Sequence record: PX436236.1
Origin: a phage
DNA: 64,000 nucleotides
Strand: one strand, 5' to 3'
The notes beneath the pieces were generated by a model that saw only the letters and a program-made list of their open reading frames with translations, did no database searches and was not told the origin of the DNA. Shown here piece by piece: positions 3,801 to 64,000 of this stretch (positions within the stretch are counted from its first letter, which is position 1; every line of letters begins with the position of its first letter). The position numbers were made by a program, and so were the translations under genes.

Positions 3801-4394
3801 TTACTTAAGTGAATTAATGTAGTCTTCGATATCAGCAGAAGTCGTATCCATTCCAACTTGTGGGCCTTTAAACGTTTCTACACGAAGCAGGGTGTCTTCA
3901 ATATCAATCTTAGTCAATGCAGCGATTTCAACAACATCATCGGCAGTAGCAATACCCAGGGCAGCCATATTACGAGTTTCACGAATGTACTCAAGCTTAA
4001 CCGCTAGTTCCTGGCGAGAGTCATCAAGTTCCTTAACCTTCAGTTTAATTTCATTACGCATTTCGATATAATCATCGGCTTTCTTACGAAGCTGGGTAGC
4101 TGTACGACGATAAAGGAGGCCAAGTTTAGCATGTACCTGGACATCAGCGCCTCCGGCAATCAGTTTACGAATTTCACGTTCTTTAGAAGCAGCGAGCTGG
4201 TCTTTTTCATTAGCCAATGCACGAATACGTTTTTCTTCATTCACAGACTTAACATGAGCAGTCTGGAGTTCAGTGATTTTATCAATCAGAGTAGAAGCAG
4301 CTTTTGTGTATTGGTCTTCGATTGACAGGTTCTGAGCCATTGCGGTGCCCAGTTTAGAACGAATGAATTCAACGATTTTCTTTAAAGTGTTCAT
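3801..4394 (-). CDS. coiled-coil protein (197 aa), weak resemblance to PspA/IM30-type helical proteins
   Basis: ATG with AAGGAA SD; own GTTTAC/TATAAT promoter upstream; sequence predominantly helical and charged. Confidence 0.5.
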
Positions 4395-4437
4395 AGTATT
4401 TCCTTCAGTTGGTTAACGTTTTGTAATCCATGAGGAC

Positions 4438-4467
4438 ATTATACCCTGTCCTCTGAGGTTTGTAAAC
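4438..4467 (-). promoter_or_regulatory. early sigma70-type promoter (GTTTAC -35, TATAAT -10) with overlapping stem-loop
   Basis: Minus strand GTTTAC-N18-TATAAT upstream of 3801-4394; inverted repeat aggaca/tgtcct spans -10. Confidence 0.55.
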
Positions 4468-4470
4468 ATT

Positions 4471-4869
4471 TTATTTCATTTTTGCGAGGCAAATTTCATT
4501 GGCTTCCCATTGAGCTTGCTTAATAATAGCTTTGGATACAGGAGCCCTTTGGCCATAAGTTTTTGACGTTGAGAGAACAATATGTTTGTTTGCTTCATTA
4601 TGCCAGCCCCATGATTTTTCGCCATGAGTACCTTTAACTACAGCTGACACCTCAACAGAGCAACCACCATCAGAAATCTTGGTTTCGACAACCCATTCAT
4701 TTCTCTCAGCAGCTTCAATTTCTAATCTAGTTTTTTCTTCATACATCGCGGCCCAATCAGTTTTTGCCAAGTTGAAAGTAAGAGCTTTCTCTAGTTCTTT
4801 GGCATATTTTTGTTGTTCAGGTGTTAATGAATTATACAACTCTTGCATTTCTTTATCTTCGATATTCAT
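4471..4869 (-). CDS. hypothetical protein (132 aa)
   Basis: ATG with GAGGAG SD; early promoter plus 10-bp inverted repeat upstream. Confidence 0.5.
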   Translation of the reverse strand: MNIEDKEMQELYNSLTPEQQKYAKELEKALTFNLAKTDWAAMYEEKTRLEIEAAERNEWVVETKISDGGCSVEVSAVVKGTHGEKSWGWHNEANKHIVLSTSKTYGQRAPVSKAIIKQAQWEANEICLAKMK

Positions 4870-4894
4870 TATGTTCTCCTCAAATTATGGGCTC

Positions 4895-4924
4895 ATAATA
4901 TCTTAATCATGAGCCCATGTAAAC
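4895..4924 (-). promoter_or_regulatory. early promoter (GTTTAC -35, TATTAT -10) with 10-bp inverted repeat
   Basis: Upstream of 4471-4869; ATGGGCTCAT/ATGAGCCCAT inverted repeat. Confidence 0.5.
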
Positions 4925-4927
4925 GTT

Positions 4928-5191
4928 TTATTTCATATTATTGAAATAATTTTCTGCATCAAAATCATTACCATGGTAAACTTTGGTAGACGATTTGGCG
5001 TAACCTTCAGCTGAGAACATATTAATCACAACTTTAATTGTATACCACTGTCCATCTTCATTACCCATTACTGCATAGGTTTCATACACCGGGTGTTCAG
5101 GACCGATAACCTTAATATCGTTAACTGTGGCACCAAATTCTTCCGGAACACATTTCATAAAGAAATTAAACACTTCACCATAATTATCCAT
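4928..5191 (-). CDS. hypothetical protein (~87 aa)
   Basis: ORF-track start 5206 is GTG; ATG at 5191 (MDNYGEV) has AAGGAG SD. Confidence 0.5.
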   Translation of the reverse strand: MDNYGEVFNFFMKCVPEEFGATVNDIKVIGPEHPVYETYAVMGNEDGQWYTIKVVINMFSAEGYAKSSTKVYHGNDFDAENYFNNMK

Positions 5192-5226
5192 TTTACTCTC
5201 CTTCACTCTGTTGTTTTGATAGGTCT

Positions 5227-5255
5227 ATAGTATCATGTTCTACGAAAGAGTAAAC
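5227..5255 (-). promoter_or_regulatory. early promoter cassette (GTTTAC-N17-TACTAT) containing GGTCTATAG motif
   Basis: Shares gataggtctatagta core with 8315-8352, 8641-8682 and 42579-42617. Confidence 0.55.
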
Positions 5256-5280
5256 ATCTTTTTTAAACCTTTTAGAAACA

Positions 5281-5307
5281 AAAAAGGCCCAACCTTTCGG
5301 AAGGGCC
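5281..5307 (-). terminator. intrinsic terminator (GNRA-loop hairpin plus T-run), repeat copy 1
   Basis: Minus strand GGCCCTTCCGAAAGGTTGGGCC then TTTTT, just after stop of 5313-5867. Confidence 0.6.
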
Positions 5308-5312
5308 TAGAA

Positions 5313-5867
5313 TCAGTTCTTGTAGAACCGGAATGGGTTTATGTGGAAGGCTAACATAGCCTTAGGGATTTTACGAGACAAAAGACTCTTAAGTTTCCAA
5401 CCACAGTATACACGAAGGTAAAAGGTAATCCCACCTACTTTAAGATACGGAACTGAAGCAAAGACTCCCCATGCTTCGTCATTCCACATCCATAACCATC
5501 CATGATGAGCTTTATCAGGAGAACCGGATTCAACGTCAGGATTACCACGATAATGGAATTCTGAGCTACAATCGCGTCCAAGTTTATGGTAAGCAAAGTT
5601 ATAAGCTTTATTTCGCCATAGCCAAGCTACCCTCTGGAGATAAACACCGCCCGGCATTTTCCTGATTTTAGCCCAACGTTTAATATGACCTTTGTCACCG
5701 TCAATTGGATTATCGTATGTCATCATCCAATCAAAGCCGTACGGTAATTTACCTGTCTTTTTATTGTGGAAAGGAACCACAAATGGGGCAAGGATAACAG
5801 CCAGAACCATAGAGATAAAATCTAGTGGGACCAACAGAACCCAACTCAAATATTTTAAAAGTTTCAT
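5313..5867 (-). CDS. membrane protein (N-terminal TM helices), ~184 aa
   Basis: ATG at 5867 lies downstream of the terminator hairpin at 5891-5906; the longer ATG at 5972 would bury that terminator in coding sequence. Hydrophobic N-terminus LSWVLLVPLDFISMVLAVILAPFVV. Confidence 0.5.
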   Translation of the reverse strand: MKLLKYLSWVLLVPLDFISMVLAVILAPFVVPFHNKKTGKLPYGFDWMMTYDNPIDGDKGHIKRWAKIRKMPGGVYLQRVAWLWRNKAYNFAYHKLGRDCSSEFHYRGNPDVESGSPDKAHHGWLWMWNDEAWGVFASVPYLKVGGITFYLRVYCGWKLKSLLSRKIPKAMLAFHINPFRFYKN

Positions 5868-5883
5868 ATATTTCTCTAAGTTA

Positions 5884-5906
5884 ACCAAAAAGCCCCAGAT
5901 GGGGCT
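5884..5906 (-). terminator. intrinsic terminator after internal-protein-like gene
   Basis: AGCCCCA/TGGGGCT hairpin followed by T-run on minus strand. Confidence 0.6.
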
Positions 5907-5910
5907 TTCG

Positions 5911-6375
5911 TTATTTGATTTGTTTAGCAGACCAGATACGGTCTTTGATGATTTTCTGAATATCTTCAACATACTCTAAGTCGTGAGCATGTGGATTATC
6001 TTTGAAGCTATGTGCTCGTGCCAGTTTCTGGCCTTCTGTTTTGATTACTAAAAGCTCTTTAAGAATTGCTTCATACTTAGAAATAATTCCTTTGGCGATA
6101 TTTTTTTCTTGAGCGGCTTTAGGGTCCGCTTTTGACGCAGGTGCTTTACCTGTAGCTTTCTGGAACAATTCACCTGATGCAGCTAGGCTTTTAAAAACTC
6201 GGCTAACAGTATTAGCATTAGTAAAACCTTCGGCTTTAAAATCTTTAATAAAACGGAAACGTTCTTCATCAGAGGCGTCTTTGTAAGAATATTTACCTGC
6301 TTGAATTGCTGCAATCGCAGCGGCTTTTACATCTGAACTAGATTGTTCAGTCAAAAATTCATTGTAAGTTTTCAT
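5911..6375 (-). CDS. internal-protein-like (capsid-targeted) protein, 154 aa
   Basis: N-terminus MKTYNEFLTE matches the T4 internal-protein capsid targeting sequence (MKTYQEFIAE, L/I-x-E cleavage motif); late promoter TATAAATA immediately upstream. Confidence 0.6.
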   Translation of the reverse strand: MKTYNEFLTEQSSSDVKAAAIAAIQAGKYSYKDASDEERFRFIKDFKAEGFTNANTVSRVFKSLAASGELFQKATGKAPASKADPKAAQEKNIAKGIISKYEAILKELLVIKTEGQKLARAHSFKDNPHAHDLEYVEDIQKIIKDRIWSAKQIK

Positions 6376-6401
6376 ATTATTTCCTAAGTTAGTTTACTAC
6401 A

Positions 6402-6409
6402 TATTTATA
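6402..6409 (-). promoter_or_regulatory. T4-type late promoter (TATAAATA)
   Basis: Minus-strand TATAAATA ~27 nt upstream of ATG of 5911-6375. Confidence 0.55.
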
Positions 6410-6410
6410 C

Positions 6411-6438
6411 AAAAAAAGCCCAACCTTTCGGAAGGGCC
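6411..6438 (-). terminator. intrinsic terminator, repeat copy 2 (after tRNA region)
   Basis: Same GCCCTTCCGAAAGGTTGGGC hairpin plus TTTTTTT. Confidence 0.55.
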
Positions 6439-6439
6439 T

Positions 6440-6820
6440 TTAACCTAGGGTAACCTTGTCGGGGTTCCACCTGCTAGGCAAGTGTTTGTACGAAACGCCG
6501 GGATTCGAACCCGGTTATTAAGTAGTTGACGCCACTCAATATTTTTAAAAGGCCATATCTCGACCATATCCGAACGTTCCGTCAAAAACGCTACTCGGCT
6601 TACGGCAAAGATATTTCCTCGAATCGATAATTCGGTGCGCCGTTTCTGCTGTGATGTAAGGGGACGTTAACAGATCGTAAAGATTTGTTAATGCCAGTCC
6701 TTACTCAGGGAACATCAGTCCGACGACTTACCGGTAGCGACCCGGTTTCTTGTTTGTTGCGCCGGTGAATGCTGGTAATCAGTCTTCATACGACGGCTTG
6801 ACTATATAATAGTCTTCATT
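6440..6820 (-). other. ORF-free structured region next to tRNAs, with orphan tRNA-like T-arm (6494-6512)
   Basis: No ORF of 60 aa or more; CCGGG/TTCGAAT/CCCGG T-arm-like hairpin and other stem-loops; position analogous to T4 small stable RNAs. Confidence 0.3.
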
Positions 6821-6895
6821 TGGTATCCCGCCCTGGGATCGAACCAGGACCGCAAACTTAGAAGGATCGTATGCTATCCATTACACCAGCGGGAC
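6821..6895 (-). tRNA. tRNA-Arg (anticodon TCT)
   Basis: Cloverleaf folded by hand: 7-bp acceptor stem, T-arm CCTGG/TTCGATC/CCAGG, anticodon loop CTTCTAA, encoded CCA. Confidence 0.75.
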
Positions 6896-6900
6896 GTAGT

Positions 6901-6977
6901 TGGTGACCCAGACCAGATTTGAACTGGTAACCTTTCCCTTATGAGGGGACTGCTGCTAACCATTGAGCTACAGGGCC
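6901..6977 (-). tRNA. tRNA-Met/Ile (anticodon CAT)
   Basis: T-arm ACCAG/TTCAAAT/CTGGT, anticodon loop CTCATAA, encoded CCA; acceptor stem has one T-T mismatch, D-arm atypical. Confidence 0.6.
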
Positions 6978-6982
6978 TTAAA

Positions 6983-7249
6983 TCAAACTACAAATCCAGC
7001 AGGAGCATTATCATCTTTAGCCATGTGCTGAATTGTATGATAAGTCATTTCTTCAGGAGCAACCAGATAAGCCGCAGCGTTAACTAGTGGAATTATTTTT
7101 GGTTTAGCGAATGTGCTATCGGCAATTGCCATAAAGGGCTCGCCGTCGGTCTCAACTTCACCAAATTGACATTCATACGAAATAGAACAACGTTTGGTAG
7201 TTGTTGTCTTGGTTTCTGGGTCGTAAAAAGCTAATTTTAATACTAACAT
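6983..7249 (-). CDS. hypothetical protein (~88 aa)
   Basis: ORF-track start 7255 is GTG; ATG at 7249 with GAGGTG SD. Confidence 0.4.
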   Translation of the reverse strand: MLVLKLAFYDPETKTTTTKRCSISYECQFGEVETDGEPFMAIADSTFAKPKIIPLVNAAAYLVAPEEMTYHTIQHMAKDDNAPAGFVV

Positions 7250-7428
7250 AAACACCTCAAATAAAATTAAGTAAAGTAAGTTTGATTAATAGACCTTGTC
7301 TATTATGAAAGGCTCTTTGAGGGAAGAACCTTTGGTAATAGAGGGTTACTTAATAATGTTAGAGTAATAATAACACATTACTCTTAAAGCATATTACTAT
7401 TTTTAGGAATAGTCTGGTCAAATTTGAT

Positions 7429-7719
7429 TCATTGTGGCCACATATTAATGTAATCAAGTTTAATAGAAGCAATCTTCAAAGGATTTTTAAAGATGTCGTA
7501 TTCGATCAATCCGTTTTCAGTTGCGGTGTAGAAAGTAAAGTTAACAGAATTATAACGGCGACCATTAACTTTTAGTTTAACGTCGCTTGAACTACGACCA
7601 ATATTAACCTGTTGGACATCAAGCACAGCACCTTTGCCAAAGTTGCGAATCAGTAGCTCTGCTGCAACCTGGTCTGAATTATAGCCATTCTCTGGATTAG
7701 TAACCTTAACGTATAGCAT
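7429..7719 (-). CDS. hypothetical protein (96 aa)
   Basis: ATG start abutting stop of upstream gene. Confidence 0.45.
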   Translation of the reverse strand: MLYVKVTNPENGYNSDQVAAELLIRNFGKGAVLDVQQVNIGRSSSDVKLKVNGRRYNSVNFTFYTATENGLIEYDIFKNPLKIASIKLDYINMWPQ

Positions 7720-8100
7720 TTAACCCTCGTCTACAATAGTATGGGTATTAGCATTAACAATCTGCCACCAGTCAAAACGATTGGAACCGTAAAGAGGGTT
7801 ATTCTCATTTTCTTTAATGATATCGCGCAGTTCATCTTCAGTAGCGGCCTTTGCGATTAAGTCGGCATAACCGCCACGAGGGTAATAGTTATCACCCGCA
7901 AAGAGCAAAAAGTTTGTTTTGATATTCTTGAATTCTTCAAGTGTAATAACGGACCCATTGGGTTGAACAATATCCACATAACTATACCCTAATTCCTGGG
8001 CTTTATCTACCGCCTCAAGCAGGGTGTCGTGTGCCCACCCAATTTGACAATCTGGTTTTTCAGATGGATTTGCCTGATAATCTGCATACACTTTATACAT
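7720..8100 (-). CDS. hypothetical protein (~126 aa)
   Basis: ORF-track start 8148 is TTG; ATG at 8100 (MYKVYADYQ) lies 1 nt after stop of upstream ORF (translational coupling). Confidence 0.5.
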   Translation of the reverse strand: MYKVYADYQANPSEKPDCQIGWAHDTLLEAVDKAQELGYSYVDIVQPNGSVITLEEFKNIKTNFLLFAGDNYYPRGGYADLIAKAATEDELRDIIKENENNPLYGSNRFDWWQIVNANTHTIVDEG

Positions 8101-8101
8101 T

Positions 8102-8287
8102 TTACTCACCTTTAGAGATTTTATCCATAACAAAAGAAATTGAACCAATTAAAAATGCCACTACTAAAGAGATTATATTCTCGGAAGTTGAAAGCATATC
8201 GAGCATGAATCCTGCAAACATACTAAAGCCAAAAGCGGTAACAGCGGCCAGTGCAGTAACATTTCTAATTAATTCACAACGTTTCAT
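8102..8287 (-). CDS. small hydrophobic membrane protein (~61 aa)
   Basis: ATG at 8287 with GGAGA SD (track start 8299 is TTG); single TM-like segment; early promoter at 8324-8352. Confidence 0.4.
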   Translation of the reverse strand: MKRCELIRNVTALAAVTAFGFSMFAGFMLDMLSTSENIISLVVAFLIGSISFVMDKISKGE

Positions 8288-8323
8288 TTTATTCTCCAAT
8301 CACTCATTTGTTTTGATAGGTCT

Positions 8324-8352
8324 ATAGTATCACACCTATAGACCTTGTAAAC
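8324..8352 (-). promoter_or_regulatory. early promoter cassette (GTTTAC-N17-TACTAT) within palindrome
   Basis: ggtctatag...ctatagacc inverted repeat; upstream of 8102-8287. Confidence 0.55.
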
Positions 8353-8354
8353 AA

Positions 8355-8627
8355 TTATTTTAGATAAATTGCATACTTTTTATAACCAGCTGTTTCGTGA
8401 CGCAACCCTTTTTCATTAGCAAAACGTTCAATATTGTTAATTTGATTCTGGTCGAGTTCTGAAGTATCAAAAACAAAAAAGTTTCGCTTATTGCCTAAAG
8501 TTACGTGATTAGTCAAATCGATGTTATAGAGATGATTTATATCATCAATCATAGTCTTAACAGATTTGTTAATTTTTACTTCCTCATTAAGAATAGATTC
8601 AGCGATAAATTCTTGATAAGTTTTCAT
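8355..8627 (-). CDS. ipI: internal protein I-like (capsid-targeted), 90 aa
   Basis: N-terminus MKTYQEFIAE identical to the T4 IPI capsid targeting sequence; position next to 57B as in T4. Confidence 0.65.
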   Translation of the reverse strand: MKTYQEFIAESILNEEVKINKSVKTMIDDINHLYNIDLTNHVTLGNKRNFFVFDTSELDQNQINNIERFANEKGLRHETAGYKKYAIYLK

Positions 8628-8640
8628 TTTGATTTCCGTG

Positions 8641-8682
8641 CGGTTAGTTTGTTTACAAGGTCTATAGTATCATGCCTATAGA
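8641..8682 (-). promoter_or_regulatory. early promoter cassette within 17-bp perfect inverted repeat
   Basis: GTTTACAAGGTCTATAG / CTATAGACCTTGTAAAC separated by 8 bp; minus-strand GTTTAC-N17-TACTAT upstream of IPI-like gene. Confidence 0.6.
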
Positions 8683-8703
8683 CCTTGTAAACACCTTTTT
8701 AAA

Positions 8704-9396
<693 letters not shown>

Positions 9397-42291: not shown

Positions 42292-42573
42292 TTATGCAAT
42301 CTTAACTCGGCGGTTGATGATATCACGGAAGTCAATACGATTTTCTTGGATTTTCAGCCAGTTACCAGATTTGTCTTTGGTATGGGTAGAGTATTCACCG
42401 TTCCACCAGAAGTCGGTAGCATAAGCCATGGCTTCGTATTTCTTAACTAAGGCATTCACTGCATTACCATTAGGATTGTTACCGAATTTTTCTACCAGAG
42501 CTTTGATGTCTTTATCAAGAGCGGAAAGAGTAGTACGAATAAAGTTTAACTTGTTCATTTTTAATCTCCTCAT
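42292..42573 (-). CDS. hypothetical small protein (93 aa) at the position of T4 segD
   Basis: ATG start; own GTTTAC/TACTAT early-type promoter; convergent with gp23. Confidence 0.5.
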   Translation of the reverse strand: MRRLKMNKLNFIRTTLSALDKDIKALVEKFGNNPNGNAVNALVKKYEAMAYATDFWWNGEYSTHTKDKSGNWLKIQENRIDFRDIINRRVKIA

Positions 42574-42587
42574 GTTTTGATAGGTCT

Positions 42588-42617
42588 ATAGTAACATGTG
42601 AGAATCTTGCTGTAAAC
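42588..42617 (-). promoter_or_regulatory. early promoter cassette (GTTTAC-N18-TACTAT) inside late capsid gene cluster
   Basis: Same gataggtctatagta core; upstream of minus-strand ORF 42292-42573. Confidence 0.55.
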
Positions 42618-42623
42618 AACTTT

Positions 42624-42631
42624 TATAAATA
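42624..42631 (+). promoter_or_regulatory. late promoter (TATAAATA) for gp24
   Basis: TATAAATA ~29 nt upstream of ATG 42660. Confidence 0.65.
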
Positions 42632-49766: not shown

Positions 49767-49990
49767 AAACCTTTAAAGAAGTTATTCAAGAAGCATCTAT
49801 TGAAAGCTTCATGGCTAAAATTGGTTCTTGTCAGACTATGGACGGTCTGAAGGAACTAGAGAAGTATTACAAAACTCGTAGTAAGGAAGCTGAACTTCGT
49901 GATTCGGACGATATTAGCGTGCGTGATGCATTGGCTGGTAAGAGAGCTGAATTGGAGTCGATGGACGACGAGGAAGAGGAAGATTTCTAA
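49763..49990 (+). CDS. uvsW.1: UvsW.1-like small protein
   Basis: 75 aa; position after uvsW; CTS-like N-terminus MKTFKEVIQE and acidic C-terminus DEEEEDF. Confidence 0.6.
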   Translation: MKTFKEVIQEASIESFMAKIGSCQTMDGLKELEKYYKTRSKEAELRDSDDISVRDALAGKRAELESMDDEEEEDF

Positions 49991-50017
49991 ACAAAAAAGG
50001 CCCAACCTTTCGGAAGG
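49990..50017 (-). terminator. intrinsic terminator, repeat copy 3 (after uvsY operon; also abuts uvsW.1 stop)
   Basis: Same hairpin plus T-run on minus strand. Confidence 0.55.
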
Positions 50018-50049
50018 GCCAATAACCATAAATGGCTATACACACTAGA

Positions 50050-58082: not shown

Positions 58083-58373
58083 TTATTTACGGAACGAAAT
58101 GAAACCTGCTGTGGTCATTAGTGGTTGCTTTTTAACAAACACCGTAACCGAAATAGGAGCTTCGGATTCGAGTTGTCCTGTCACTACACCGTTAAAAATG
58201 TTTTCGGTTTGTTCTGGATAAGAAAAATTCTCAACAGGTCGGATATCAAACTGTTTGTCTTCACCGAAAACTCGACGTAATTCATTACCCACTGCACTGT
58301 CAAACTCTTCAGAAGCAGGGATAACGTTTTCAACTACCAGTTCTTGACCATTAAAACGGAATGCAGATTTCAT
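58083..58373 (-). CDS. hypothetical small protein (96 aa) downstream of alt cluster
   Basis: ATG with GAGGAG SD; own GTTTAC/TACTAT promoter. Confidence 0.45.
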   Translation of the reverse strand: MKSAFRFNGQELVVENVIPASEEFDSAVGNELRRVFGEDKQFDIRPVENFSYPEQTENIFNGVVTGQLESEAPISVTVFVKKQPLMTTAGFISFRK

Positions 58374-58401
58374 AATGTTCTCCTCATGTTTGTGTAAGGT
58401 A

Positions 58402-58431
58402 ATAGTACCACATCCTTGTGGTGTTGTAAAC
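58402..58431 (-). promoter_or_regulatory. early promoter (GTTTAC-N18-TACTAT) plus conserved leader
   Basis: Upstream of 58083-58373; leader matches 1210-1245. Confidence 0.5.
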
Positions 58432-60554
58432 TACATTTTGAATTTATTTGATAAAGAAGAGATATCCAAAGACGCTGCAAGGATTTCCATAGCCTCGTTG
58501 CTTTCAGAAACAGATTCATTAACCAAGAATTGACTGAACCCATCCATCAGGCGAACTTCACCAGTTTCCATCAAATGGTCACCATCGTAAACAGATTCGC
58601 TGAGCTCTGAAGGAGGCGTTACGGTAGCTTCCATAAGGTATTTGTGAGATACTCTATCATTCATGGCAAAAGCCGCTACTTTATCAACCTTCAACAATAA
58701 TCCACGCGGAAGGATAATTTCTGCTTCTTCGGCATATTCTGTAAGGTCACCAGGAGCGATAACTTTAACTGCTTCAGCACCTCGAATAACCATACCAATT
58801 TCAGCAATTCTATCTGCAGGACCTTCAGGTGCAATTGGATTACCAAACTCGTCTTCTTCCCATTCTACCTCTTCGTCATCGACTTCACCCACATCAGATG
58901 AACTACCACTAGCCAATTTAAACAACTCATCAGCGGAGGACAAAGAACCTTCACCACCAACAAAAACGGCTTGGTTGTCGAGGGCCATATAATTTTTACC
59001 GAATTCACCAAAGATGTTAGGCTTTAATGAGGCTGACACAAAGTTCTTAAAGTAAAATGTTTTGTTATCGATATTATGGCGCAGAATTTTGTATGGCAAA
59101 TCCTGACCACGATACAAAATAGTACCCTTAGGAAGTTTAATACCCTTAGTAAATGCTGAGTCTAAATCCTTAATCAATTTAATAGCCGTTGTATTGTTTT
59201 CGGATTCAGGTTTACCTAAAAGGAATAAGTTCATAGGAGCATATTCAGCCGCGCAATATTCAATAATAGCATTGCTTTCATCTTTGGTTAGGTCCTTAGG
59301 TTTAATGAGCTCGCCTGAATAAGCATATGCATCACTAATAGAATCGTTAATCAGTTTATAAACGGCTTCCATAGCGAAAGCAATTCGAGATGCTTTCTCT
59401 GAAGGGGAACCCTTAAAACGGGTACTCAGGTTATTAACAATTTTCTTAATAATATCCAGACTATTGGTTGTATTGATTTGCGAAAGGCCACTTAAAAGTC
59501 TATCGACTTCTGTATTAAAAAATGCCATATTATTAGAGTAAATTTCAAACCCTTGTTTATCTCTATTAGCATAATTTAGTTTAAATTTACTATCAGTCAT
59601 TAAAGCGTGTGTGAGAGCAATAGTGTATCTAAAGTTGGCAAGGTCCTCGCTCTTAGATTTAAACTGAGAAGCCTGACGCATTTTAGTAATGGCACCTTTT
59701 TTAAAGTTCTGACTAATCTGTTCAATACCTTCGTTCTCAGGGCCTTCAGCCGTGTGAACCGGTACAGAAGCTTCAAACTCGTTATAAACCTGCAATTCTT
59801 TAGGGGACAAAGTTTCAGGCTCAGCAGTAGAATACTGCGCCGCCGCTGCCATACGACGCGAAATCTTAGTACGAGTAATGACAGCCTTATCAGTACGTTT
59901 CTCTTCAACTTGTGCAATAGATGCCGCTACGGCTTCGACCTTACTTACAGCCTGGCCGGTTTTCTTAGAAACATACACTTCGCCAACTTTAGACTCAACT
60001 TTAGTATAAAGATCGGCATTAATTTCAGGCATACCCTTGATATCTTCAATATTAGCACCACGACGTACTAAAAGAACGTAGGTATGTTTTCCGCTGAATT
60101 GGAACATGTCGTCAACAACTTTAAACTTACCACCGGTACGAGCCATAGCCAAGCGAGCTAATACGCGCTGAACGGTAGGACCTTTACCTTTCATTTTCTT
60201 AGTAGGGAAACGGAACAAAACCGCGTCCATTTTAAGTTTGTTTATTTGTTCATATATGGTATCGAAAATGGTGTTCAGTGTACCGAGTGGATCGGTACCC
60301 AAACCACCCTTGAGTTCTGCCGGGGCGCCTTTAGCAGATAAACTCATTAGGATGACATGGACGTACTTATCGCCTGGCTTAACCATTTTAATAGCGTCTC
60401 CTTGAGACGCATAAGATACCATACGAGCAACCAGATTATCATTACCTGGTGCTTGGATAGAGAAAATCTGTGGAATACCGGAACCCGGTTTAAGATTTGT
60501 TACTGGATAGTTTTTAGCGGAATCACTATCAAAAACCTCATTTAAATTTTCCAT
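58431..60554 (-). CDS. alt: Alt-like ADP-ribosyltransferase, paralogue 1
   Basis: 707 aa; conserved N-terminal ~240 aa shared with paralogue 2; C-terminal R-S-E ART motifs (LYRGQ, SASL, EEAEIILPRG). Confidence 0.8.
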   Translation of the reverse strand: MENLNEVFDSDSAKNYPVTNLKPGSGIPQIFSIQAPGNDNLVARMVSYASQGDAIKMVKPGDKYVHVILMSLSAKGAPAELKGGLGTDPLGTLNTIFDTIYEQINKLKMDAVLFRFPTKKMKGKGPTVQRVLARLAMARTGGKFKVVDDMFQFSGKHTYVLLVRRGANIEDIKGMPEINADLYTKVESKVGEVYVSKKTGQAVSKVEAVAASIAQVEEKRTDKAVITRTKISRRMAAAAQYSTAEPETLSPKELQVYNEFEASVPVHTAEGPENEGIEQISQNFKKGAITKMRQASQFKSKSEDLANFRYTIALTHALMTDSKFKLNYANRDKQGFEIYSNNMAFFNTEVDRLLSGLSQINTTNSLDIIKKIVNNLSTRFKGSPSEKASRIAFAMEAVYKLINDSISDAYAYSGELIKPKDLTKDESNAIIEYCAAEYAPMNLFLLGKPESENNTTAIKLIKDLDSAFTKGIKLPKGTILYRGQDLPYKILRHNIDNKTFYFKNFVSASLKPNIFGEFGKNYMALDNQAVFVGGEGSLSSADELFKLASGSSSDVGEVDDEEVEWEEDEFGNPIAPEGPADRIAEIGMVIRGAEAVKVIAPGDLTEYAEEAEIILPRGLLLKVDKVAAFAMNDRVSHKYLMEATVTPPSELSESVYDGDHLMETGEVRLMDGFSQFLVNESVSESNEAMEILAASLDISSLSNKFKM

Positions 60555-60557
60555 TAT

Positions 60558-62639
60558 TTACCCTTGGATGAATTTTTCTGGGATGTCATAGAGGTCTATG
60601 CATGAAGCCAAAAGAGGCAGTACATCAAACCGTGTAGATTTAACAAATGAATCAAAAGATACAGGGCTTTCGGAAGTATCGAAGTCATCTTGATATACGA
60701 CCAACTCGCCGGTTTCCATTAGTACGTCACCATCATATACCACAGATTCTTGAAGCTCATCTGTTGTCATAACTTCAGCTTGGATGAGTTTTGTATTACT
60801 AGATGTTGTTCCATCATTATTAGAAGCATCTGTTATTTTATTAACTTTGACCATTAATCCACGTGGTAGAATAACTTCAGCTTCAGTTGCTATTCCGAGA
60901 TTTCCTGGATATACGACATTAACTTTATGAGCTCCATCAATCGCCCATCCTATTTGAACTTTAACATAATCAGGATTTTCTTTATATGCTCTTATTTCAT
61001 TAGGATTAATAGTTATTCCTTCTTCATTTTTATCAACTGTCAATTCGTTGCGAACTTCCGGTTCTAAAAGACCAATACCAGCGTGCGTAACACCAAAACG
61101 TCCGAAAATTATAGGAGTTAAAGAAGTAGATACAAAATTTCTAAAATAAAACACTTTATTTTTAACTAGTGCTTCGTATATAGGAGCAGTCATACTCTGT
61201 GCACGATAAACTGTAATGCCTTCCGGTATACGGTCACCATTTTCAAAAGCTGAATCTAAATTATTTACAGCGGATTCGATATCTTTTTCGCTCATAACCT
61301 CATAGTTCTGAGGATTATAACGTCCTAAAAGAAGATTATTTATGTCTGTATATCCTGAACCACAATATTCTCTGATACCACGCTTTTGTGATGGAGTATA
61401 TTTAGAACCTTCACGAGCAATAGTAATATCAACCATAATACCACCACCCACACCAGCAAAACTATACACGCGTTTTTTAATGAACTTAGTCTTGGCTGCT
61501 TTCCACTTGGCCTCTGTCAATTCGTTCCAAAGGTCATCAGGTTGGCCTTTACGAGTTCTGTTATGGATAGCCAGCCACTCGCCTTTATATTCTTCGAAAA
61601 TGGTATTAATAGCAGAGGCATATTTTTCTAGAGCTTTAACAGATGTCAAAGGTTCGTTTTTTATTGCTGTAAGAATTTTCTCTTTAATTTTCTCTTGGAT
61701 TTCGCCAATACCGTGAAGTGGGAACATTTTATAATCGTAATGCAATTCTTCAGCAGTGCCTTCAGCCACTATATTAGCAACCTTATTTTTAGCCGCAGGA
61801 GAATTGTTATTAGTGACCATTTCCTGGGCCTCAGGGATTAATGGAACTGTTGCCGGTTTATTAAAATCTACTGCAGTAGCTTCATATTTCTTAAACAGCT
61901 CACTTTCATTACGATAAGATTCTAACGATTGACTTGCTGCAATAGCACGTCGAGAAATCTTAGTCTTGGTTATAACCATTTTATCAGTGCGACGTTCTTC
62001 AACCTTAGCAATACTACCGGCGATAGCAGTTTCTTTAGTAACCTGCACGCCTTCTTTTTTAGAAATATAAACTTCACCGACATCAGAATCTACCTTAGTA
62101 TACAATTCAGCATTAATTCCAGGCATACCTTTGATATCTTCTATATCAGCTTGTTTACGAACTACCAGGATGTAAGTATGTTTACCGGTAAATTGGTACA
62201 TAGCCGGAACTACTTTAAAACGTCCACCTGTTTTCTGTGCTACCAAACGTTGGATAATCCGTTGAACGATAGGGCCTTGACCTTTCATTTTCTTAGTAGG
62301 GAAACGGAACATCACGGCATCCATACGAAGCTTTTTAACTTGGTCATAAACCACATCAAAAATAGTATTAATCGCATCTACGGGAGTAGGGCCTAGGCCA
62401 CCTTTAAGTTCGGCAGGCGAACCTTTAGCTGAAAGGCTCATAAGGATAACGTGGGCATATTTATCACCCATCTTAACCTGTTTAATAGCATCACCTTCAG
62501 AAGCATAGGATACCATACGTGCTACTAACTGAGACTCCGCGTCTCCAATCTTCCAAATCTGAGGTACTTTAAGTTTTGGGTTCAAGTTCACAACAGGCAG
62601 TGTACCTTCGGACTCGAACACTTCATTTAATTGGGTCAT
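60558..62639 (-). CDS. alt: Alt-like ADP-ribosyltransferase, paralogue 2
   Basis: 693 aa; ART motifs VYRAQ, STSL, TEAEVILPRG. Confidence 0.8.
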   Translation of the reverse strand: MTQLNEVFESEGTLPVVNLNPKLKVPQIWKIGDAESQLVARMVSYASEGDAIKQVKMGDKYAHVILMSLSAKGSPAELKGGLGPTPVDAINTIFDVVYDQVKKLRMDAVMFRFPTKKMKGQGPIVQRIIQRLVAQKTGGRFKVVPAMYQFTGKHTYILVVRKQADIEDIKGMPGINAELYTKVDSDVGEVYISKKEGVQVTKETAIAGSIAKVEERRTDKMVITKTKISRRAIAASQSLESYRNESELFKKYEATAVDFNKPATVPLIPEAQEMVTNNNSPAAKNKVANIVAEGTAEELHYDYKMFPLHGIGEIQEKIKEKILTAIKNEPLTSVKALEKYASAINTIFEEYKGEWLAIHNRTRKGQPDDLWNELTEAKWKAAKTKFIKKRVYSFAGVGGGIMVDITIAREGSKYTPSQKRGIREYCGSGYTDINNLLLGRYNPQNYEVMSEKDIESAVNNLDSAFENGDRIPEGITVYRAQSMTAPIYEALVKNKVFYFRNFVSTSLTPIIFGRFGVTHAGIGLLEPEVRNELTVDKNEEGITINPNEIRAYKENPDYVKVQIGWAIDGAHKVNVVYPGNLGIATEAEVILPRGLMVKVNKITDASNNDGTTSSNTKLIQAEVMTTDELQESVVYDGDVLMETGELVVYQDDFDTSESPVSFDSFVKSTRFDVLPLLASCIDLYDIPEKFIQG

Positions 62640-62647
62640 AATCTATC

Positions 62648-64000
62648 CTATTTAAATAAATTTGCTAATTTTTCCATAGAATCTTCATACATAATTCTAT
62701 CATAATTTCCAAACGAGAATCCGGTGCTATATGAATTTTCCTCTGTGATTTGCTCGGTAGCTACAACTTCACATTCCACTAAAACATATTTACCAATTGA
62801 ACCCATAGGTCCCTTGGAAGCACCGTATACTTTATTAATCTTAAGCATAACCCCACGAGGAAGAATTACTTCGGTTTCTGTAGACCAATTAGCCAAGTCA
62901 CCGGGCACAATAACCTTAATTTTATCAGCACCTTTAATAATTAACCCTAGCTTAATGGTATCTCTAGCACTTCCGGTCGCACTTTTAATGGTGTCTTCAA
63001 GATTACTATCTATATCGCTAGAAAGAGCTTCAGGGTCTAAGTTGGATTGAGCATGACCCATTTCACCGAAAATATTAGGAGCCAATGAAGTTGATGCAAA
63101 AATAGGAAGATACATCACCTTATGTTTTATAGAATTCAAAGCCATTTCGGTAGGCATTATCTGAGAACGATACACTATGGTTCCTTTAGGAAGTTTTGTA
63201 CCATTTTCAAATGTAGAATCCAACTCACCAATCATTTTTATCATTTCATCGGTGGTATCTGTTTTACCTAGCAAAAAGTTGTTTATATGGTTGTAGCCGC
63301 CACGAGTATACTTTTTGACTGCCTCTTCTTGAGGTTTGGATAAATTAGGATTATCAGATATCTTAAACAATGGTTGGATAGATTTTGTATAAACTGCTAC
63401 TAAGGATTTTATTACTTCCTTGATTTTAGATTCTCTAGCCCAAGTACCTTTAACTGAATCATCTAAAAGGGCCGCAGCGACTAGTCTAAGAATGTCTACA
63501 TTAGATTTACCTGATTTTAAAGCCTCTATGACACTATTAGATTTATCTAAAGAATCTGATGCCTCTAAAGCAAACTTTATATCAGCAATTAGTTTAAGTT
63601 TGCGCTCGTCTACTTCAAATGATGGATTAACACCGTTAAAAATATAATCCAAATATTCTGCCATTTCTTTAGAGGCGTCTTTTAATATTTTATTACTGGC
63701 TAAAGCTATTTGGCTTTCTTTAGAATCTTCAGAAGAATGAACGGAACTAGTAGCAGAATAATCTGCATAAGCTTTTTTGTGCTCTGCCGAAAATTTACTC
63801 AATCCTGTAGGCTCGGCGGTAGAATATAACGCATTTATAGCGGCCCGTTTAGAAACCTTAGTCTTGGTTATAACCATTTTATCAGAACGTGATTTTTCTA
63901 TTTCGTCTATAGACTTAGCTATAGCTTCTAATTTGGTAACATCTTCGCCTGTTTTCTTTGAAACATACACATCACCGACTTCAGATTCGACTTTAGTATA
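62648..64000 (-). CDS. alt: Alt-like ADP-ribosyltransferase, paralogue 3 (partial; N-terminus beyond window end)
   Basis: Frame homologous to paralogues 1 and 2 up to window edge; ART motifs VYRSQ, STSL, TETEVILPRG. Confidence 0.75.
   Translation of the reverse strand, partial: YTKVESEVGDVYVSKKTGEDVTKLEAIAKSIDEIEKSRSDKMVITKTKVSKRAAINALYSTAEPTGLSKFSAEHKKAYADYSATSSVHSSEDSKESQIALASNKILKDASKEMAEYLDYIFNGVNPSFEVDERKLKLIADIKFALEASDSLDKSNSVIEALKSGKSNVDILRLVAAALLDDSVKGTWARESKIKEVIKSLVAVYTKSIQPLFKISDNPNLSKPQEEAVKKYTRGGYNHINNFLLGKTDTTDEMIKMIGELDSTFENGTKLPKGTIVYRSQIMPTEMALNSIKHKVMYLPIFASTSLAPNIFGEMGHAQSNLDPEALSSDIDSNLEDTIKSATGSARDTIKLGLIIKGADKIKVIVPGDLANWSTETEVILPRGVMLKINKVYGASKGPMGSIGKYVLVECEVVATEQITEENSYSTGFSFGNYDRIMYEDSMEKLANLFK

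Follow-up and report, generated by a model that had tools for sequence, protein, structure and literature searches.

Putative early-promoter stem-loop cassettes in the accessory gene region of a JS98-type T4-like phage

Introduction

Promoter-early-stem-loop (PeSL) elements were described in the phages RB49 and phi1 as an early promoter combined with an AT-rich region, a stem-loop, and the Shine-Dalgarno (SD) sequence and ATG of the following gene (Arbiol et al., 2010, PMC2839356). The stem-loop occupies five positions relative to the promoter, most commonly between the boxes or overlapping the -10. In phi1, PeSLs displayed promoter and terminator activity in reporters, and mini-circles were detected (Arbiol et al., 2010, PMC2839356). 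PeSL-like elements are also known from internal-protein (IP) loci of T-even phages (Repoila et al., 1994, as cited in PMC2839356), which Arbiol et al. consider analogues, not homologues, of the RB49 and phi1 elements. In PST and T4, PeSLs follow the consensus TTTACW-N17-TAYWAT, and a middle-promoter variant (PmSL) has been reported (Comeau et al., 2014, PMC4122927). Here, we analyze elements of this type in a 64,000-nucleotide (nt) stretch of phage DNA (record PX436236.1, hereafter the window), in which five candidate promoters, called P1 to P5 in order of descending coordinate, punctuate the small open reading frames (ORFs) of a minus-strand accessory region (Table 1).

Two further T4 systems are relevant to these sites. 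T4 early promoters have been characterized as "uber" promoters that combine an upstream (UP) element with a -35 box, a TGn motif, and a -10 box, and the available portions of these descriptions assign the conservation beyond the hexamers to polymerase contacts (Nolan et al., 2006, PMC1524935; Hinton, 2010, PMC2988021). In four T4 genes (e, soc, 49, and I-TevI), a promoter lies inside the sequence that forms an RNA hairpin (Uzan and Miller, 2010, PMC3014915).

Among 899 phage records matching 4.8 kb around the five sites, the best matches are Dhakavirus coliphages (JS98-like, Straboviridae) with 92-99% identity, and none of the 899 covers the whole 4.8-kb stretch at 99% identity or more. Judged by these matches, the source phage is a Dhakavirus, that is, a JS98-type T4-like coliphage, and the region is recognizable as the e.6-e.8/tRNA/internal-protein hyperplastic segment of T-even genomes. 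An initial annotation of this DNA had proposed PeSL-like cassettes here, and all sequence-level features of published PeSLs are indeed present. The sequence thus supports the presence of a known kind of element in another phage group, which would extend the PeSL model to a further T4-like lineage. It is likely that the five sites are T-even early promoters in PeSL-type cassettes, with a hairpin acting on read-through RNA and with repeats that aid gene shuffling.

Early promoters of the accessory region

The T-even motif GTTTAC-N16-18-TAYWAT matches the 64-kb window seven times, compared with an expectation of 0.25 +/- 0.5, and none of 100 shuffled sequences reaches seven. All seven matches are intergenic and on the minus strand, and five of them fall within the 4.3 kb of the accessory segment from e.6 to 57B (8664-8692, 8324-8352, 5227-5255, 4895-4924, and 4438-4467). 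These five are the minus-strand GTTTAC-N17/18-TAYWAT promoters that the initial annotation had placed between the small ORFs, including the two that it had located at 4438-4467 and 4895-4924, and no strict match occurs in coding sequence. Relaxed matches within coding sequence lack the nearby arrangement of stop codon, SD, and ATG. A scan with the sigma-70 consensus was uninformative in the window (27 sites versus 23 expected); it is the T-even-specific motif that discriminates. The strict motif occurs 32 times in the 150 kb of JS98 examined, always on the minus strand, and 30 times in T4, where matching positions before ipI, trna.4, e.8, and e.6 are among the sites.

The surroundings of the five sites are uniform. 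The stop codon of the upstream ORF lies within 30 nt before each site (3-12 nt before P1, P2, P4, and P5), and an SD-like GGA/GAGG followed by an ATG is found 20-45 nt downstream of every -10. A-rich stretches precede the five -35 boxes (AATAATTTAAAAAGGT, CTAAAATAATT, TTTAAAAAAGAT, GAAATAAAAC, and GAAATAAAAT). A TG stands ahead of the -10 in P1, P2, and P3 (ATGATACTAT), whereas P4 and P5 lack TGn but have better -10 hexamers. The characteristics of T4-type early promoters, namely GTTTAC, an extended -10, an A-rich UP element, and location on the early-gene strand, are therefore all represented, with TGn confined to P1-P3. As far as the available text of the T4 descriptions goes, the likeness includes GTTTAC at -36 to -31, A-rich sequence at -40 to -44, GT-rich or TGn sequence before the -10, conservation beyond the hexamers, and placement before early genes and novel ORFs in the early-gene orientation throughout (PMC2988021; PMC1524935).

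Three of the sites had been reported to share a special core. Copies of "GATAGGTCTATAGTA" do occur at 5203-5235, 8300-8332, and 8640-8672, and a fourth lies at 42564-42596. However, this is not a local repeat, because TACTATAGACCTATC is present in 12 of the 32 JS98 promoters across that genome; a region-specific repeat is thereby ruled out. The core is best described, from its distribution, as the genus-wide early-promoter -10 plus discriminator/start box. Its T4 equivalent is TACTATACAACTATCAAC, and the Dhakavirus start-site box AGACCTATCAA corresponds to ACAACTATCAA in T4.

Mapped onto the genes, the cassettes provide a putative transcription-unit map for an accessory region that is poorly annotated in Dhakavirus phages, a group widely isolated for use in phage therapy. 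The suggestion that the small ORFs are independently expressed units applies to part of the region. Not every small ORF is independent, because two (5313-5866 and 5911-6375) lack an early promoter of their own and trna.4, trna.3, and trna.2 share a single one.

Hairpins embedded in the promoters

In P1, P2, P4, and P5, an inverted repeat is embedded in the promoter itself. Its 5' arm lies in the spacer, and its 3' arm extends from the -10 to approximately the start site (to +8 in P1). Since the promoter's own transcript lacks the 5' arm, the hairpin is possible only in RNA read through from upstream or in single-stranded DNA. The hairpins start 10-18 nt past the upstream stop codon. Inverted repeats were taken from a repeat scan, and RNA folds of the cassettes were scored as kcal/mol and z. 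The P1 repeat (8650-8667/8676-8693) comprises 18 nt with 100% complementarity and an 8-nt loop, and its fold reaches -28.5 kcal/mol (z -7.7). This is the perfect repeat of the initial annotation, which had assigned it 17 bp at 8641-8682; it lies about 10 nt higher, and a feature ending at 8682 would cut the last cassette, because the repeat runs to 8693. P2 has a 10-nt repeat with 100% complementarity (8318-8327/8336-8345; -18.1 kcal/mol, z -4.0), and P4 has a 13-nt repeat with 92% complementarity and one G:T (4887-4899/4906-4918; -20.1 kcal/mol, z -5.5). In P5, GAGGACA (4447-4453) faces TGTCCTC (4432-4438) over 7 nt, and a conserved ATGGATTACAAA box follows downstream. Of the five sites that the initial annotation had described as embedded in or beside an inverted repeat, four have one inside the promoter, while P3 lies 24 nt downstream of a canonical terminator; close to the SD of P3, TTTACTCT can pair weakly with AGAGTAAA.

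Complementarity between spacer and downstream region is specific to the individual promoter. The longest stem was compared between native combinations and combinations in which spacers and downstream regions were swapped among promoters. Mean values for native and swapped pairs were 8.43 versus 5.69 nt in the window (p=0.0016), 6.19 versus 4.78 nt in JS98 (p<5e-5), and 5.57 versus 4.61 nt for the 30 promoters of T4 (p<5e-5). When the 68 promoters of the three genomes are pooled, the native excess is confined to the reverse-complement orientation (6.18 versus 4.74 nt, p<2e-4), and no such excess is seen in the direct, reverse-only, and complement-only controls. Perfect stems of 6 bp or more are present in 32 of 58 promoters, compared with 10.6 +/- 2.7 when the spacer is shuffled. 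In these 58 promoters, the stem axes cluster at -14.5, -11.5, and -7. The -7 class pairs the spacer with the SD region, for example TTCTCCTCATG/CATGAGGAGAA and ATCTCCTGTAG/CTACAGGAGAT, and is also found in T4. Spacers complementary to their own SD region are frequent among the early promoters of both genomes, examples being those at JS98 record coordinates 7810, 56816, 59124, and 168084 and at T4 coordinates 65413, 62797, and 53943, and pairing of this kind is absent from promoters located behind an intrinsic terminator.

The stems preserve one geometry with unrelated sequences, as illustrated by GAGGACA/TGTCCTC, TGGGACC/GGTCCCA, AGAGCC/GGCTCT, GGTCTAT/ATAGACC, and AAGGCTAT/ATAGCCTT. Paralogous promoters of P5 in JS98 and T4 likewise keep a stem of different sequence. 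Four alleles of P2, the trna.4 promoter, occur among the relatives, and in three of them spacer and discriminator are mutually complementary, with changes matched on both arms (AGGTCTATAG/CTATAGACCT, GGGCTNTAG/CTATAGCCC, and GATAGGGTA/TACCCTATC). A single stem position of P4 reads U-A in the window, U.G in JS98, and C-G in AnYang. An exact-pattern scan of IMG/VR for further P4 orthologues returned four contigs only, with the lengths of IME281, QL01, IME341, and JS98; orthologue-based covariation is therefore confined to the 13 relatives. In-stem mismatches on the sense strand comprise eight G:T and no A:C, a small count that is not fully independent, as two cases share the consensus GGTA/TACT. 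This bias points to RNA rather than DNA. Finally, pairing does not rise above background in the promoters located behind an intrinsic terminator (mean stem 4.89 versus 6.37; Mann-Whitney p ~0.03 in a post hoc comparison with n=9), and this absence of hairpins behind terminators fits a role common to both.

The embedded repeats might instead be operators, at which a dimeric repressor shuts off the early promoters minutes after infection. Their overlap with the -35/-10 region would let a bound repressor block polymerase, and the shut-off of early promoters in T4 is unexplained according to reviews (PMC2988021; PMC3014915). However, no sequence is common to the arms of different promoters, the repeats differ in arm length, loop size, and register, and about half of the promoters are without a repeat. 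Moreover, the class that pairs the spacer with the SD is sensible only in RNA. Given that the arms share no sequence, the operator explanation was set aside as extremely unlikely.

It is just as hard to credit that the hairpins are themselves intrinsic terminators, perhaps bidirectional, that end transcripts of the upstream gene or plus-strand antisense transcripts. A single PeSL stem-loop of phi1 did cut lacZ as strongly as rrnB T1 (PMC2839356), and a simple scan calls the P1 hairpin a plus-strand terminator, where it is followed by CCTTTTTAAA. Yet this T run is nothing other than the A-rich UP element of the promoter, and the plus strand has no gene ending at this point, so the call was rejected. 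On the minus strand, no embedded hairpin is followed by a U tract (P1 AAACUAACC, P2 AUCAAAAC, P4 AAUUUGAGG, and P5 AUGGAUUAC), and true U-tract terminators exist as three separate elements in the same region (Table 1).

Comparison with described systems

The cassettes share with the PeSLs of RB49 and phi1 the order of a stop codon in an AT-rich region, -35, N17, -10, stem-loop, SD, and ATG. In both, repeats in direct orientation surround small accessory ORFs of hyperplastic regions and coincide with insertions and deletions between close relatives, and the stems of P1, P2, and P4 overlap the -10, one of the commonest positions in those phages. The promoters themselves differ, being of the T-even GTTTAC...TAYWAT type with TGn in the window and near-perfect TTGACA/TATAAT in RB49 and phi1. 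The stems are AT-rich or mixed rather than polyG/polyC. The PeSLs of PST and T4 resemble the cassettes in consensus, neighborhood (the IP locus by 57B and the e-tRNA region), and gene replacements, and their PmSL resembles the element at 7299-7391 of the window. In contrast, the PST stem-loops lie just upstream of the promoter (AGNA-loop-TCNT, according to a figure legend of Comeau et al., 2014), while four of the five in the window lie inside it and only P3 has one upstream, a full terminator.

The hairpins of T4 e, soc, 49, and I-TevI offer the closest parallel in logic. There, too, the 5' arm lies upstream of an internal promoter, and upstream transcripts fold while the proximal one remains free. 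The spacer/SD class of JS98 and T4 follows the same logic. However, the internal promoters of the T4 genes are late and their hairpins hide the ribosome-binding site, whereas the window promoters are early and the hairpins of P1, P2, P4, and P5 end 15-30 nt before the SD, hiding nothing. Weak pairing with the SD region is found in the window only at P3 and in the cassette at 42.6 kb.

Gene-content junctions among relatives

Comparison of the window with 13 relatives identifies junctions in cassettes, consistent with the gene exchange envisaged in the initial annotation (positions are in window coordinates). Phage 005 lacks the ORF at 4471-4869, with a junction at 4482/4918 in a 21-nt repeat, TGTAAAC(A/G)TTTTATTTCAT on the plus strand, which consists of the -35 box and the end of the upstream ORF and is common to P5 and P4. 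E33 matches the window from trna.4 to 8339, inside P2, and continues with a different gene and a terminator. In JS98, KIT01, AnYang, and IME281 there is one more ORF, whose junction (5267/5281) falls between the terminator and P3. The terminator, UP, and spacer modules of the e.8 cassette (P3) itself are found in recombined sets: terminator A with spacer 1, terminator B with spacer 2, and the recombinant terminator A with spacer 2 in 005 and IME341. An extra 477-bp ORF in JS98, UGJNEcP3, and IME281 has its junction at 7394/7402, just upstream of the 7299-7391 element. Depending on the phage, one to four genes lie between trna.4 and 57B, and the direct repeats on either side of Ip9 agree at 38 of 40 positions. 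The cassettes would thus explain isolate-to-isolate differences in gene content in this region.

A mosaic junction was also seen in coding sequence with no cassette near it: most relatives have a replaced or strongly diverged sequence in the center of trna.3 (7905-8059), and its flanks retain 92-97% identity.

The position of junctions in or beside cassettes could also reflect a mechanism at the DNA level, in which extruded cruciforms or hairpins serve as cleavage or binding sites for a recombination enzyme (endonuclease VII, gp46/47, or a site-specific factor) and the cassettes are active recombination hotspots. JS98 encodes endonuclease VII and gp46/47, and a specific DNA-binding protein was raised as a possibility by Arbiol et al. 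(PMC2839356). However, DNA cruciforms do not predict the strand-specific G:T excess, and the stems are short (7-13 bp) except in P1. Because each cassette has a different stem sequence, such an enzyme would lack a shared recognition site. Furthermore, none of the mapped junctions is in a stem or loop; they fall in the -35/UP repeat, in leaders and terminators, and in targeting-sequence codons. A DNA-level role of the hairpins is accordingly improbable.

Proposed role of the cassettes

In the favored explanation, host sigma-70 RNA polymerase would read the five sites as early promoters. Each cassette occupies the entire intergenic gap with, in order, a stop codon in the A-rich UP element, GTTTAC, a 17-18-nt spacer, TAYWAT, the discriminator/start box, SD, and ATG. 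The hairpin can form only in RNA read through from an upstream promoter, and would act on such transcripts as an attenuator or as a 3'-end or insulator hairpin; at other JS98 and T4 promoters, this arrangement would occlude the SD sequence. P3, with no hairpin of its own, lies behind a canonical terminator. The cassettes share boxes of 20-45 bp in direct orientation, and these promoter boxes, together with leaders, terminators, and targeting-sequence codons, would be sites at which phage homologous recombination deletes, inserts, or swaps small genes.

Several observations weigh against this explanation or limit its support. We infer initiation at the five sites from the consensus and from the T4 promoters at matching positions. 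P3 has no embedded hairpin or repeat (fold -8.5 kcal/mol, z +0.28), and the P5 stem is weak (-15.5 kcal/mol, z -1.5). Because no U tract follows them, the embedded hairpins are not canonical intrinsic terminators. For the axis at -14.5, a fixed-register count over 46 distinct TACTAT-type promoters supports pairing, with 55.2% paired cells versus 49.7 +/- 1.1 in shuffled sets (0 of 500) and 30-43% with a slid partner, but the events are fewer than the cells, because many covarying cells are orthologues of one allele. For the axis at -11.5, the corresponding test over all TACTAT-type promoters was not significant (43.9% versus 43.8%), and the weight therefore rests on the -14.5 register and the free-register comparison of native and swapped pairs. 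The limits of the mismatch count and of the post hoc terminator comparison, given above, belong here as well. Junctions also occur apart from promoters. Ip8 of QL01-type phages is absent from the window, with a junction in 12 identical nt (GATAAATTCTTG, plus strand) that belong to codons of the common N-terminal targeting sequence (MKTYQEFI), and the ORF at 5911-6375 is absent in six relatives, with a junction in a repeated leader of ~25 nt. Junctions are intergenic in part because those within genes are selected against. It appears from these positions that junctions use short regulatory and leader repeats generally, promoter boxes among them, and that non-promoter repeats such as leaders, terminators, and the capsid-targeting codons of internal proteins serve as well.

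The perfect repeat of P1 illustrates how a stem might arise without selection. Its 18-nt form is shared only by MX01 among the relatives, the others having ACCTATCAAAAC with a stem of 10 nt. Phage 04086 matches the window in its 57B-P1-Ip9 arrangement and still has ACCTATCAAAAC in place of the ACCTTGTAAAC of the window and MX01. The altered bases are complementary to the opposite arm. A single templated change completing a quasi-palindrome would explain the perfect repeat. More generally, the sites could be ordinary early promoters with functionless repeats, by-products of the self-complementary CTATAG, gene conversion, and palindrome-completing template switches, and the junctions would cluster there only since intergenic DNA tolerates them. 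CTATAG, which is identical to its reverse complement, lies at the core of the P1 and P2 stems, and the single complex change in P1, ATCAAAAC to TGTAAAC, copies the other arm exactly and fits templated mutation over selection. P3 works without a stem, and the -11.5 register is not significant. Nevertheless, a consensus artefact would not give rise to an excess of native over swapped pairing in three genomes and in the reverse-complement orientation only. Unrelated stem sequences keeping one geometry, the bias of mismatches to G:T, and the lack of pairing in promoters behind terminators also contradict it, leaving this explanation unlikely.

A more specific version of the favored explanation, which is possible though somewhat short of probable, holds that the T-even PeSL stem-loop is a selected RNA element. 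Complementarity of the untranscribed spacer, either to the discriminator/start region or to the SD of its own gene, would be maintained by selection; only read-through RNA would fold, insulating the promoter-gene unit and substituting for an intrinsic terminator. Complementarity of this kind is not described in the available portions of the T4 early-promoter reviews (PMC2988021; PMC1524935) or of the PeSL papers, and searches for earlier accounts of hairpins at T4 early promoters yielded nothing usable. The promoter-specific pairing of spacers with discriminators and SD regions, which holds across the JS98 and T4 genomes, is a suggestive addition to the PeSL model. If true, early promoters would join T4 e, soc, 49, and I-TevI as cases of a "promoter inside hairpin", and the PeSL stem-loop would have a defined function.

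Other features of the region and the window

The genes of the region lie on the minus strand throughout (3801-9159), and their names and order follow the annotation of the 13 relatives and the ORF list of the window (Table 1). The relatives label these ORFs as "hypothetical" or as internal head proteins.

Table 1. Coordinates of promoters, terminators, and genes in the window.
Feature	Coordinates	Strand	Position, parts, or source
P1	8628-8703	-	Between 57B (stop 8704) and Ip9 (ATG 8627); -35 GTTTAC 8687-8692; TGn and -10 TACTAT 8664-8669; predicted start near 8657
P2	8288-8354	-	Between Ip9 (stop 8355) and trna.4 (ATG 8287); -35 8347-8352; -10 8324-8329
P3	5192-5312	-	Upstream of e.8 (ATG 5191); A-rich UP; -35 5250-5255; -10 5227-5232
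P3 terminator	5280-5307	-	GGCCCTTCCGAAAGGTTGGGCC 5286-5307 and six T 5280-5285
P4	4870-4927	-	Between e.8 (stop 4928) and ORF 4471-4869 (ATG 4869); -35 4919-4924; -10 TATTAT 4895-4900
P5	4395-4470	-	Between ORF 4471-4869 (stop 4471) and e.6 (ATG 4394); -35 4462-4467; -10 TATAAT 4438-4443
Further early-promoter cassette	42555-42629	-	Same TACTATAGACCTATCAAAAC box; spacer partly complementary to own SD
Further early-promoter cassette	58370-58443	-	Upstream of alt.-3 homologue
Intrinsic terminator	5887-5908	-	AAAGCCCC-ATCT-GGGGCTTT and T run; after ORF 5911-6375
Second GGCCCTTCCGAAAGGTTGGGC terminator and T7	6411-6438	-	Ends tRNA/rnaD/rnaC unit; then late-promoter motif TATAAATA 6402-6409
Middle-promoter-like element	7299-7391	-	MotA-box motif TGCTTTA-N12-TATTAT 7367-7391, then 19-bp imperfect hairpin 7299-7342
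57B	8704-9159	-	Annotated relatives
Ip9	8355-8627	-	Annotated relatives
trna.4	8102-8287	-	Annotated relatives
trna.3	7720-8100	-	Annotated relatives
trna.2	7429-7719	-	Annotated relatives
ORF	6983-7249	-	ORF list
tRNA-Met	6901-6977	-	
tRNA-Arg	6821-6895	-	
rnaC/rnaD homologues	~6490-6753	-	T4 comparison
IP-like ORF	5911-6375	-	ORF list
ORF	5313-5866	-	ORF list
e.8	4928-5191	-	Annotated relatives
ORF	4471-4869	-	ORF list
e.6	3801-4394	-	Annotated relatives

The element with a MotA-box motif is a possible middle-promoter counterpart (PmSL) of the cassettes, to judge from its motif and hairpin. The terminator GGCCCTTCCGAAAGGTTGGGCC with its T run is present in three copies, 80-89% identical (5271-5315, 6402-6446, and 49984-50028), two of which lie at gene-content junctions. 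A copy at 1210-1278 is 75% identical to the cassette at 58375-58443 and has a degenerate -35 (ATGTAC); it is possibly a decayed "half" cassette. A scan of 4200-9000 against Rfam 15 (E<=0.1) returned the two tRNAs only, and the cassettes match no curated RNA family.

Downstream of tRNA-Arg, the T4 stable RNAs rnaC and rnaD show 90% identity to 6407-6756 on the minus strand (~6490-6628 and 6635-6753); no Rfam family exists for them. An rnaC-sized block (6487-6630) is missing in JS98, 005, MX01, AnYang, IME281, and IME341. The ORF at 5911-6375 (154 aa) starts with MKTYNEFLTE, which resembles the capsid-targeting leader of internal proteins (MKTYQEFIAE in Ip9). It is preceded by the sole late-promoter motif of the region and followed by a terminator. 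In LHE83, AnYang, and IME341, a homing-endonuclease gene lies at or next to the 5 nt that separate tRNA-Arg from tRNA-Met (6901-6904); in T4, segB adjoins tRNA-Arg. Farther away, diverged direct repeats spaced 2094 bp apart, with 66-82% identity, occupy 59851-63898 and are probably tandem alt paralogues, as two adjacent alt genes are found in JS98.

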